From a virus: 64,000 nt of DNA. The notes under the pieces are model-generated. The model saw only the letters and a program-made list of their open reading frames with translations. It searched no databases and was not told the DNA's origin. The stretch is taken from IMG/VR virus record IMGVR_UViG_3300025895_000020, positions 404 through 64,403 of that record; one strand, written 5' to 3'. Below are positions 39,546 to 42,945 of this stretch, piece after piece; the stretch's first letter is position 1; the number at the start of each line of letters is the position of its first letter. The translations under genes were made by a program, and so were the position numbers.

Positions 39546-41572
39546 GCGACCTTCGCCACGTCATGGAGCGCGTCGGCCGTATCGTTGCGGCGGATCAACT
39601 TCTCACGGTCGACATACGCGGGGTCCAGGCGTACGCGACGCGGGGCCGTGTCGTGTTGCCGGCCATCGAAAACTACGATTGGCTGGGCGAGAACGCTTCT
39701 CGGATGCTGCACGGTATGCTCGACCACGAGTGCGGGCACGCGAGCTTCACCAACTTCGATACCGTTGAAAGGATATGCGAGGAAGAGACGGGGGCGTTCA
39801 AGGCGCTTTGGAATGCGCTCGAAGACGCCATGATCGAACGGTTGAAGGGCGCGGAGTTCAAGGGCTGCGCGCAGAACCTTGAACAGCTTCATAACTGGTT
39901 CTGGGAGCGCGGTGGTACAGGCGATCAGCCGATTCACGGTGTGATCAGCGATCACCCTGATTTTTGGATCGCGTTCTGCCTGAGCGTGAACACGGTGGTG
40001 ACGCCGTACGGTGGCCACCCGATCGAAACTATCGAAGCCTTGCGGCCCGATGTAGGGGCGTTGCTGCGCGAAGTCGAAGACGAGCTAAAGAAGGTCGCCA
40101 CTGCGGAGACCACCGAAGAGATATTCGAGATCACCAAGGCCATCTATGCGCACGTGGCCGATCGGGTGCCGGAAAAGCCGGAGCCTGAAGCGGGCGACGA
40201 TGAGGGCGACGATGAGGGTGGCGCGTGCGACAATGCGGGCGATGGTGACGGCGCTGGTAAAGGCGGTAAAGGTCGCGCGCGAGCTAGCAAGCGTGACGGC
40301 GACGCTGACGATGATGGCGATGACGCTGCCGTTGATCGTGACGCTGACGATTCTGCGGAAGACGACGCCGACGATAAGGGCAAGGCCGATGCGGACCCCG
40401 ACGCCAAAGAAGAGGCCGATGCAGACGCGGAAGACCGCAAGCCGCCGCCAATCTCCGAGCGCGATTTGGAGCGCTGGACGAATGTCGACGGCACGCCGCT
40501 GAGCCCCGATGACGCGGTGCAAGTGCGGGTGCGCAGTGTCTTTGAGCAACCGCGACACGTGCAGCCGTACACGGTATTCAGCCACGAGTTCGATCTCGTG
40601 CGCGACTTCTCTGTGGAGACCCACAAGACGGGCGCGAGCTACGATCGCGATATGCGCGCCGCGCGCTCCGCCAGCGAGTCGCTTTCCATTGCCTTCGAAA
40701 CGGCCCTTCGAGCCAAGCGCGATCTGCACCCGGTCGGTGGGTACGATGAAGGCATGGCCGACCCCGATCTCTTGGGCGAGTACGCGGTGGGCTCGTGCCC
40801 GGCCGATCAGCTCTTCCAACAGATGGTCGCCGAAGATTCCGATGACGTGGCGGTGTCCATCTTGCTCGATTGCTCCGGCTCGATGGGCAACGGGCCTAGC
40901 TCGAAGGCCCACTTGGCCAAGCTCACGGCGCTCGCGCTGCACCAAGCGCTGAGCACGTGCCAGATCGAACATGAGATCACGGGCTTCACCACGTTTGAGC
41001 ACCGCATGCCGCACACGTGGCTAGCCGGCGACTTCGGTGCGCTGGCGCGTGAGAACATGAAGCGGCTGGACGCGGCGCTTACCGAAGCCGAAGCGCAAGG
41101 CACGGACATATTCAAGTTCGCGCGGTGCGTGCGCGAGTGGCGCGACGAGCGGTTGCTCCAAGTACCGCTTTACGGCGTGTTCAAGAGCTTCGGCTCCACG
41201 GATGCCCGCGGGCTAGAGAACGTCGCCGGGCTGAGCCATAACCTGGACGGCGAAGCCGTGCTTTGGCAAGCGAACCGGATTGCGGAGCGCCCCGAAAAGC
41301 GTCGGGTTATGTTCGTGCTCTCCGATGGCAACCCCGAAGGGAGCGTCGATAACGCGCAAGGCGCGCGCTACCTGAAAGAAGCGGTCAAGCGGGTGCTCGC
41401 ATCGGGTATCGAAATCTACGGTATCGGGATGGACAGTTCGGCGGTGCGCTCGTTCTATCCTGAGCATTGGGTGTGCTCCGACATGCAAGACCTTGGCAGG
41501 CTTGCCATGACCGCGATGACTGAGGTATTGCTCCGGTCCCGCACGGAGCGCACATGGGTGAAGGTCGCCTGA
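39542..41572 (+). CDS. CobT-like protein: N-terminal HExxH domain, acidic linker, vWA/MIDAS domain
   Basis: LDHECGH, NALEDAMIER, D/A-rich linker, LLDCSGSM (MIDAS), and FVLSDGNP. ATGA-coupled to the ATPase. Confidence 0.85.
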   Translation: MSDLRHVMERVGRIVAADQLLTVDIRGVQAYATRGRVVLPAIENYDWLGENASRMLHGMLDHECGHASFTNFDTVERICEEETGAFKALWNALEDAMIERLKGAEFKGCAQNLEQLHNWFWERGGTGDQPIHGVISDHPDFWIAFCLSVNTVVTPYGGHPIETIEALRPDVGALLREVEDELKKVATAETTEEIFEITKAIYAHVADRVPEKPEPEAGDDEGDDEGGACDNAGDGDGAGKGGKGRARASKRDGDADDDGDDAAVDRDADDSAEDDADDKGKADADPDAKEEADADAEDRKPPPISERDLERWTNVDGTPLSPDDAVQVRVRSVFEQPRHVQPYTVFSHEFDLVRDFSVETHKTGASYDRDMRAARSASESLSIAFETALRAKRDLHPVGGYDEGMADPDLLGEYAVGSCPADQLFQQMVAEDSDDVAVSILLDCSGSMGNGPSSKAHLAKLTALALHQALSTCQIEHEITGFTTFEHRMPHTWLAGDFGALARENMKRLDAALTEAEAQGTDIFKFARCVREWRDERLLQVPLYGVFKSFGSTDARGLENVAGLSHNLDGEAVLWQANRIAERPEKRRVMFVLSDGNPEGSVDNAQGARYLKEAVKRVLASGIEIYGIGMDSSAVRSFYPEHWVCSDMQDLGRLAMTAMTEVLLRSRTERTWVKVA

Positions 41573-42945
41573 CATGGGAAGAATGCTGGCCAGTGGTCGA
41601 AGCAGAAGCCCGGCGGTGGCGCCGAGCCGGCGCAGAGATCGGTCTCGACCGGGACGACTTGACCCAAGAGGCTTCGATCGCGGCGGTCCAGTGCGTGGCG
41701 CGCTGGCGGCCCGATGGGGGCGGTCGGACGACGTATGTGCGGACCGCGATCCGCAATCGTTTCGCGAACGTGCGGAAGCAAGCCCTACGTCAACGGCGCG
41801 TGCCACACGATGCCGATGGCCGGCCACGGCCGGAGTGGGTGGTCGGTTATGACGATTGTGGCTTGCAGTCTTGGGGAGCTTTCGATAAGGGTCGGATCGA
41901 GTCACGGCATGCTCTTCGTGTTCTGCACGATCGGCTCTCTAGGAATGATTGGGAATTCCTGGTTCAGACGTTGGTTCAAGGGGCACATTTGGCGCGGGGG
42001 ATCGCGCCAGATCAAAAAGAGCGACTACACTCTAGGCTTCGGGAAATCCAAGGCCGCGCGCGACGCATTCTCACCGGGCTTCTTACAGATCATGAGGCAA
42101 AACCGATGAATGCAGCTTTGATTCCCCAACCGACCCGCGAAGAGCTTCCTGAGTGTCACGCCAACGGCAGTCAACCCCAAGGCTATGACCGCGAAGACCC
42201 GGTGTGCTGGAATTGCCGGGATAAGTTCACATGCTTGCCGAGCGCACTCGACAAAGCGTTGGTCGTCGGCGCGCTCCAAGACGATTCAGAGATTCATGCG
42301 GTGCTTTCCGAGGACATGAGCTTTCGCGCCGCCATCGAACGGATGGGGCATCGGCTGCGGGTGACCCAAGCGGGTGGTGAAGTTCCGCCGGAGCTGGACG
42401 TACGGACGCCGGTCGTAGAGACCGGAGTGCGGTCGGTGGCGACGACCCCCGAACCGGAGCCCGAGCCTGAGCCCGAGCCAGAACCCCCTGCCCCGGAGCC
42501 TGAGCCGGAGCCTGAGCCCGTTGCCGTGGCCCCCACGCCCGTTGCTCCCCCCGCTAAGCGCAAGCCCGCTAAGCGCCCCTCACGGGCCTTGGTGAACGAG
42601 AAGGGCGAGCCCACGCTCAAGAGCGGTAAGCCCTTGCCGCCTGTGCGCCAGCTCAGCAAAAAGCAGATGAAGGCCGCGATCGGGCGGATCAAGGTCAATC
42701 AGCCGTTCCCCTTGGAGCTGGGCATGCAGTTCGTGCGCAAAACGAAGGATGGGGACAATATCATCGTGAGACTCGTGCCCACGGGCTTTGAGCTAGACGG
42801 CGTGATCTACAGCTCGCTCAGCACGGCAGTCATGTACAGGCTCCGCAAGGTGACGAGCGGTAACGCGTATTTCAATTTGGTGACGAACCAGTGCACGGAG
42901 ATATGGTCTGAAGACGGGGATGTGTTGGCCGGCTACATCGGATGA
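41554..42945 (+). CDS. sigma70-family factor domain fused to Cys-rich, Pro-Glu linker and DUF2924-like domains
   Basis: DRDDLTQEASIAAVQCVARWRPDGGGRTTYVRTAIRN (region 2). CWNC...C, a (PE)n linker, and GMQFVRK...TGFELDGVIYSSLS...SGNAYFNL. Confidence 0.7.
   Translation: MGEGRLTWEECWPVVEAEARRWRRAGAEIGLDRDDLTQEASIAAVQCVARWRPDGGGRTTYVRTAIRNRFANVRKQALRQRRVPHDADGRPRPEWVVGYDDCGLQSWGAFDKGRIESRHALRVLHDRLSRNDWEFLVQTLVQGAHLARGIAPDQKERLHSRLREIQGRARRILTGLLTDHEAKPMNAALIPQPTREELPECHANGSQPQGYDREDPVCWNCRDKFTCLPSALDKALVVGALQDDSEIHAVLSEDMSFRAAIERMGHRLRVTQAGGEVPPELDVRTPVVETGVRSVATTPEPEPEPEPEPEPPAPEPEPEPEPVAVAPTPVAPPAKRKPAKRPSRALVNEKGEPTLKSGKPLPPVRQLSKKQMKAAIGRIKVNQPFPLELGMQFVRKTKDGDNIIVRLVPTGFELDGVIYSSLSTAVMYRLRKVTSGNAYFNLVTNQCTEIWSEDGDVLAGYIG
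42448..42520 (+). repeat. Pro-Glu hexanucleotide repeat linker
   Basis: Degenerate CCxGAG repeats encoding PEPEPEPEPEPPAPEPEPEPEP. Confidence 0.85.

Follow-up and report, generated by a model that had tools for sequence, protein, structure and literature searches.

A divergent phage sigma factor fused to a WhiB-like cysteine domain and a RAMA/DUF2924 domain, with a candidate internal start at the junction

A single open reading frame (ORF) in the IMG/VR virus record IMGVR_UViG_3300025895_000020 raises the question of whether one phage gene supplies a sigma factor tethered to a second module, that module as a separate product, or both. The record comprises 65,426 bases, is estimated to be 65% complete and comes from an uncultivated phage of the ~100-kb class; most of it, a stretch of 64,000 nucleotides with a GC content of 61%, was analyzed here and is referred to as the window. 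The 463 residues of the ORF join a sigma domain of extracytoplasmic function (ECF) size, a WhiB-like domain with four invariant cysteines (Cys4), a disordered linker and a C-terminal RAMA/DUF2924 domain. With moderate confidence, and on the strength of comparative sequence evidence, we read this gene as encoding a phage sigma factor tethered to its own WhiB7-like co-factor, with the co-factor probably also translated alone. An earlier reading of the letters and ORFs of the window (the sequence-only reading) had offered a tethered sigma factor and a pair of products as alternatives; comparison with relatives lends support to each, and one does not preclude the other. The components that it had placed in one frame are all present with no internal stop (Table 1), namely the sigma domain, a CWNC segment (C218-W-N-C221), Pro-Glu repeats (residues ~296-322), a Lys/Arg-rich basic patch beginning PPAKRK (residues ~334-346) and a DUF2924-like C-terminus.

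By profile and model comparison, residues 1-184 are a real, very divergent group-4-like (ECF-like) sigma factor. The Pfam model Sigma70_r2 covers residues 15-74 at 26.9-27.7 bits, above its cut-off of 24 (30.3 bits in a scan of the whole record), and the NCBIfam model TIGR02937 scores 32.6 bits, below its cut-off of 42.9 (E 5.4e-8). No Pfam region-4 model matched the sigma domain. A profile built from 42 distant members aligns with solved ECF sigma factors over region 2 and through region 4 (9isn_F 58-189, CnrH 36-186), and three helices of the predicted structure at residues 108-179 fit this region. Foldseek with the AlphaFold model retrieved sigma factors at a probability of 0.97-0.99 with 168-242 columns aligned. 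At 184 residues, the domain is too short for regions 1.1 or 3. Of the domain assignments proposed for hidden Markov model searches by the sequence-only reading, region 2 stands above its cut-off, region 4 finds no Pfam model, and DUF2924 is weak in the window protein itself. The first start is fixed by the N-terminal sequence MG...LTW..C, which is conserved in homologues.

The fusion is genuine and old, as far as related sequences can tell. A profile search of the full library yielded 112 clusters (50% identity clusters) at E<1e-10, and 160 collected proteins, most of them representing 50%-identity clusters, were classed with sub-profiles of the three parts. All three parts were present in 58 of the 160 proteins, the Cys and C-terminal domains in 41, the C-terminal domain only in 14, the Cys domain only in four, and the sigma and Cys domains in another four. 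The remaining 39 fell into the sigma-only class, in which many are generic ECF sigma factors at weak scores; four database proteins (P0055, P0101, P0111 and P0112) are candidate sigma-only members. Relatives with as little as about 25-33% identity still have the entire architecture, so its features exceed what would be expected by chance. In all seven fused loci for which DNA was available, the parts share one open frame. The contig that is the source of a "short" 279-residue database protein (L001) has the full 467-residue frame open, and one 90%-identity cluster holds gene calls of both 280-286 and 464-468 residues; short entries therefore reflect the choice of start site, not stops. Annotation pipelines give either the 463- or the 279-residue product for the same gene. 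A stop in relatives between the two halves, which the sequence-only reading had regarded as the mark of two ordinary genes, was seen in the distant locus L008 only; the junction is open in P0001, L001 and L003 (72-73% identity), and the fused form is found in over 50 additional clusters. On the 1.2-kb metagenome contig L003, the sigma and Cys domains (L003:275-1186) run into an unrelated 30-residue tail and a stop; this is either a variant that occurs naturally without the linker and RAMA domain or the product of a chimeric assembly.

All contigs examined were viral or metagenomic. No match to the family was obtained by tblastn in a cultured-phage collection. Among GTDB species genomes, a peptide-pattern scan returned nothing and a DNA-pattern scan gave three matches, all spurious, leaving no prophage copy and no clue to the host.

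The split and stand-alone forms define the downstream half as an autonomous module, since it is a separate gene in L008 and stands alone in a complete 104-kb record (G001). Locus L008 carries, in order, a CobT/VWA gene, a gene for a 160-residue sigma factor and one for a 321-residue Cys-plus-RAMA protein, the last two overlapping as TGA/ATG (ATGA) with AGGAGG upstream. The partner gene of G001 comes after DnaB- and primase-like genes, at a distance of 24 kb from the sole sigma factor, which is a canonical ECF sigma factor outside the family of the window sigma. This G001 sigma factor (165 residues) is itself followed by a 213-residue protein, a pair (L017, reverse strand, 1471-2619) set apart from the Cys/RAMA partner gene; from its sequence, the 213-residue protein may span the membrane and be a possible anti-sigma factor.

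Initiation within the fused gene would supply the same module. The in-frame ATG at the junction, together with the upstream GAGG that the sequence-only reading had reported, is confirmed in the sequence (Table 1). In counts that draw on related, non-independent sequences, 53 of 56 fused proteins have a Met 7-28 residues (mode 14-18) before the first Cys, where the Met content would predict 19.2, and GAGG, GGAG or AGGA lies 4-8 nucleotides before the junction ATG in 7/7 fused loci (about four independent lineages), against 10-22% of background codons. None of 200,000 simulations of Met placement exceeded 34. Positions -5 to -2 before the conserved Met show a 3.3-fold excess of Glu, which fits GAG/GAA codons within a Shine-Dalgarno motif, and the linker around this Met is otherwise unconserved. 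The RNA at the junction is weakly folded (-7 to -13 kcal/mol, z +0.8 to +2.1), compared with -21 kcal/mol for the first start region. In L008, the equivalent start opens the separate gene. Based on these sequence features, it is likely, but unproven, that the 279-residue partner is translated on its own.

Wbl (WhiB-like) proteins are [4Fe-4S] transcription factors known from Actinobacteria and their phages. A WhiB-type cysteine signature in the segment after the junction had been missed by the sequence-only reading, and with it the likely mechanism changes. Every one of 42 distant full-length members keeps C201, C218, C221 and C227; their spacing is C-x16-C-x2-C-x5-C (the first interval being 16 in 61 of 88 members), and H202 is invariant in 11 closer homologues and nearly so across the wider family. 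The C-terminal 279 residues fold confidently when modeled with 57 homologues in the alignment (mean pLDDT 88.5, Cys domain ~96). When a profile of the partner was compared with 177,635 PDB sequences, WhiB7 was the best match (E 7e-4), with the four cysteines and the His after the first Cys aligned; a smaller profile of the Cys domain alone again placed WhiB7 first (E 0.017). Comparison by hhalign with 31 environmental WhiB proteins gave P values of 9e-4 and 1.9e-4. Furthermore, real Wbl proteins average 10.1 bits against the Cys-domain profile, compared with 2.7 for shuffles with fixed Cys positions, indicating that the similarity extends beyond Cys spacing (C-x2-C-[PA]-x-K-x2-C-L-x2-A). G210 and Y211, conserved in at least 90% of the wider family, lie between the first and second Cys, as do the aromatic residues of Wbl proteins, which engage sigma region 4 through an aromatic patch; the pair is noted as a lead only. 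A search of the ESM Atlas with the Cys domain gave no usable match, and a single-sequence hhalign comparison with the TM4 WhiB was uninformative. We accordingly call the domain WhiB-like from its sequence, with membership in the Wbl family unproven; its probable ligand is a metal or an Fe-S cluster. Sigma region 4 is the binding site of Wbl proteins (bioRxiv 10.1101/2025.06.05.653497). The WhiB link is favored because the only detectable relatives bind sigma region 4 and the Cys domain directly follows sigma region 4 in the fusion, a coherent coincidence. Outside the family, a 147-residue protein encoded by a second ORF of G001, unrelated otherwise, carries a C-terminal Cys motif (C...GGYD...C-x2-C-x5-C-L; E 1.4e-4 against the Cys-domain profile). 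Since it carries the same motif, the Cys module appears to be mobile among the proteins of these phages.

The linker differs among relatives in length and sequence and keeps its acidic-then-basic order. For the domain that follows it, the DUF2924 model gives a weak match in the window protein (E 0.01-0.12; 13-16.6 bits against a cut-off of 31.2). Across the family, 37 of 57 members match this model at E<=0.01, and P0116 (39.3 bits) and P0121 (35.5 bits) lie above the curated cut-off; P0121 also matches the RAMA model weakly (E 0.013). The top structural matches of the C-terminal domain, a candidate for the RAMA fold, are the two solved RAMA domains. DUF2924 has been equated with RAMA (PMC11342252), and RAMA domains bind double-stranded DNA independently of sequence (PMC9963953). 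By analogy, the RAMA/DUF2924 domain is probably a DNA-binding module. In some fused members, L010 (record G003) and P0092, roughly 60-100 additional residues that include a GWGW motif separate the linker from the RAMA domain.

In the mechanism that we favor, the sigma domain would bring the core RNA polymerase of the host to phage promoters, the Cys domain would dock onto sigma region 4 in the manner of WhiB-like proteins on the primary sigma factor, and the RAMA domain and basic patch would grip upstream DNA as does the AT-hook of WhiB7. The outcome would be a sigma factor with a built-in co-activator, possibly one that responds to metal or redox state. From the Shine-Dalgarno motif and ATG at the junction, ribosomes would also make the 279-residue partner alone, and the free partner could act on other sigma molecules, those of the host included. 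A fuller version, in which the tethered elements are a WhiB-type Fe-S co-activator and a non-specific DNA clamp and the nested gene frees a co-activator that captures region 4 of the host primary sigma factor, would amount to a kind of phage transcription device not described before, but is doubtful.

Several observations weigh against the tethered co-factor and its WhiB kinship. The full-length model shows no confident packing between domains (pTM 0.27). The Pfam Whib model PF02467 is unmatched up to an E of 10 in the protein, in the small Cys-only members and in five phage records, and hhalign to the Wbl alignment, for which the reference A5 is a narrow subfamily, returned a probability of only 23-47%. 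The Gly-rich turn that defines Wbl proteins (bioRxiv 10.1101/2025.06.05.653497) is absent as G[VI]WGG after the fourth Cys; the consensus there is D-x-E-V-x-A-V-x-x-G, a segment that hhalign sets opposite the Wbl turn with different residues. Foldseek of the C-terminal model against PDB and BFVD gave no match at E<=0.001. In the VIA lists, the RAMA-like domain took up the places, so that the Cys fold was barely probed, and no structural match to the Cys domain emerged. Descent from split ancestors could partly explain the Met and Shine-Dalgarno counts. Finally, the partner occurs in G001 without a sigma factor of the window type, meaning that its target need not be the phage sigma factor of the fusion.

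Some of these data can also be read as regulation of the opposite sign. The partner would then be an anti-sigma factor whose Cys domain clamps the sigma domains, in cis within the fusion and in trans as the product of the internal start, and holds the sigma factor away from core polymerase; release would follow a redox or metal signal, on the pattern of zinc-binding anti-sigma factors or auto-inhibitory ECF extensions. The translationally coupled pair in L008 has the usual layout of ECF sigma and anti-sigma genes, and a Cys-rich, metal-type domain immediately after region 4 would suit this role; the ECF classification 2.0 likewise describes C-terminal extensions, some Cys-rich, as known regulators (PMC7826278). 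However, the zinc-binding anti-sigma motif HxxxCxxC is absent from the sequence, as is a membrane segment, and a DNA-binding domain with a basic patch is unusual for an anti-sigma factor. The best PDB sequence match is moreover an activator, WhiB7, and not any anti-sigma factor, and the partner is also found without the window sigma family. We regard an anti-sigma role as unlikely.

About as unlikely is a partner with no transcriptional link, a DNA-binding metalloprotein of replication or recombination that became fused to the product of the neighboring sigma gene by loss of a stop, with the Met and Shine-Dalgarno motif being the start that it used before the fusion and uses still. Retention of the internal start agrees with such a history, as do the position of the G001 partner directly after DnaB-/primase-like genes and far from any sigma factor, and that of the window gene among DnaB-like, DNA polymerase and RecA genes. 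It is countered by the 58 three-part proteins, spanning identities down to ~25%, which indicate that selection tolerates or favors the tether, by the ATGA coupling of the split form to a sigma gene, and by the Cys domain, for which no similarity other than to sigma-binding WhiB proteins is detected. An artefact in which an assembly or sequencing error deleted the stop between two ordinary genes, as the split L008 and the many database entries for a C-terminal protein of 276-286 residues alone might suggest, is rejected as highly improbable given the same open frame in independent contigs from different samples (L001, L003, L004, L005, L006 and L010), the three-part proteins and the open frame at the source of the "short" L001 entry.

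Among known systems, the closest in layout are ECF sigma factors with C-terminal extensions, and the fusion is a variant within that class that is itself new. The ECF classification 2.0 lists 19 groups with fused C-terminal regulatory extensions, some Cys-rich, for example, ECF238/CorE, ECF287 and ECF288 (PMC7826278). Like these, the window protein has regions 2 and 4 only and an extension of >50 residues right after region 4 with a Cys-rich element, and the extension may replace a separate regulator. The differences are that it is phage-encoded and very divergent, falling below the TIGR02937 cut-off; that its extension comprises two domains, a WhiB-like Cys4 and a RAMA domain, a combination not described, with WhiB not mentioned in the available portion of PMC7826278; and that the module also exists as a free gene and has a conserved internal start. 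Literature searches and that same portion of PMC7826278 yielded no WhiB-like or RAMA extension of an ECF sigma factor, and literature searches found no publication on a sigma-Cys-RAMA family.

With WhiB7 and other Wbl proteins, the partner shares the arrangement C-x(n)-C-x2-C-x5-C followed by L-x2-A, a basic DNA-binding appendage after the Cys domain (as in WhiB7) and association with sigma region 4. It departs from Wbl proteins in lacking both the G[VI]WGG turn and a PF02467 match, and from WhiB7 in having a RAMA domain in place of the AT-hook and a covalent fusion to the sigma factor. No canonical Wbl gene was found in five related phage records. The C-terminal domain resembles RAMA (PF18755; found as the CcrM C-terminal domain and in MPND, and partly equivalent to DUF2924) through its members above the DUF2924 cut-off and the one weak RAMA match, and the acidic and basic stretches flanking it recall MPND. 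Here it is joined to a transcription factor and not to a methyltransferase, deubiquitinase or transposon protein. T4 AsiA/MotA offers a conceptual parallel only, in that a gripper of sigma region 4 and a DNA-binding part re-target polymerase; there is no relationship in sequence or fold, and the phage here brings its own sigma factor.

Phages classically switch their infection program with sigma factors and sigma-appropriation factors. In the window gene, the two functions seem to be joined in one polypeptide, with the second possibly also supplied separately from the nested start. If the Cys domain is truly kin to WhiB, the family reaches past Pfam's recognition, and the fusion would confirm sigma region 4 as the partner by gene architecture alone. 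Under the fuller, doubtful version of the mechanism, WhiB-like binders of sigma region 4 would exist outside the recognized Wbl family and possibly outside actinobacterial hosts, the fusion serving as a "Rosetta stone" for the Wbl-sigma-4 interaction.

Table 1. Positions of the fused gene, its parts and associated features (window coordinates unless stated otherwise)
Feature	Position	Strand	Remarks
Full ORF, 463 aa	41554..42945	+	Stop codon included; sigma, Cys4 domain, linker, RAMA/DUF2924 domain
ECF-sized sigma domain, aa 1-184	41554..42105	+	Region 2, aa 15-74; region-4-like helices, ~aa 108-179
Internal initiation signal	42094..42108	+	GAGG 42094-42097, 8-nt spacer, in-frame ATG 42106-42108 (Met185)
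WhiB-like Cys4 helical domain, aa ~196-285	42139..42408	+	Invariant C201, C218, C221, C227
Disordered linker	42439..42591	+	Pro-Glu repeats, then Lys/Arg-rich basic patch; low pLDDT
C-terminal DUF2924/RAMA-like domain, aa ~349-463	42598..42942	+
Sigma70-type promoter-like site, TTGACG-N18-TATAAA	38551..38580	+	Read from sequence; ahead of MoxR-VWA-sigma operon
Palindrome copy ACCGTACACGAT	38557-38568		In spacer of TTGACG-N18-TATAAA site
Palindrome family copies	2425, 28590, 31546, 37469, 38557, 43358, 54516, 54726, 63243
MoxR-like AAA+ ATPase	38601..39545	+	First gene of operon; Pfam AAA_5 E 1e-19; 4-nt overlap with next gene
CobT-like/VWA protein	39542..41572	+	Pfam CobT_C E 2.9e-20, CobT E 4.9e-7; 3' end overlaps sigma start by 19 nt
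Conserved 85-aa gene	42942..43199	+	ATGA overlap with fusion gene; 4-nt overlap with DNA polymerase gene
147-aa Cys-motif ORF	L011 112-555; record G001:C1:86509-86664	reverse

The sigma-fusion gene sits in a block of replication and recombination genes ordered as helicase, DnaB-like helicase, MoxR-like AAA+ ATPase, CobT/VWA, sigma fusion, 85-residue ORF, family-A DNA polymerase, RecA and a nuclease-SMC fusion. From MoxR through VWA, the sigma fusion and the small ORF to the polymerase, neighbors overlap by 4-19 nucleotides, and a CobT/VWA gene also precedes the sigma gene in L001 and L008. Transcription of the MoxR-VWA-sigma operon seems to start at a host-type promoter: a TTGACG-N18-TATAAA site precedes MoxR, which suggests use of the host primary sigma factor. 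A consensus scan for promoters did not include this site, whose final -10 base is A. The spacer of the site holds one copy of a 12-bp palindrome family, ATCGTATACGAT, with nine matches in the window at <=2 mismatches against 1.3 expected; none of 100 shuffles reached nine. This palindrome is probably an operator at which a repressor or activator of the phage acts.

Directly after the partner gene lies a small ORF, present in the window (85 residues), in L001 (5401-5655, 84 residues) and in L008 (2186-2476, 96 residues). Its product in the window has no Pfam or PHROG match, and the window and L008 products are similar near the N-terminus. In the window and L001, a polymerase-sized ORF begins 4 nucleotides before the small ORF ends. 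This small ORF could be a further component of the module. Downstream in the same block, positions 48675-51653 of the window encode a single 992-residue ORF with a Metallophos nuclease domain and AAA_23/SMC_N, which, by its domain content, looks like an Mre11-Rad50 (SbcCD-like) fusion.

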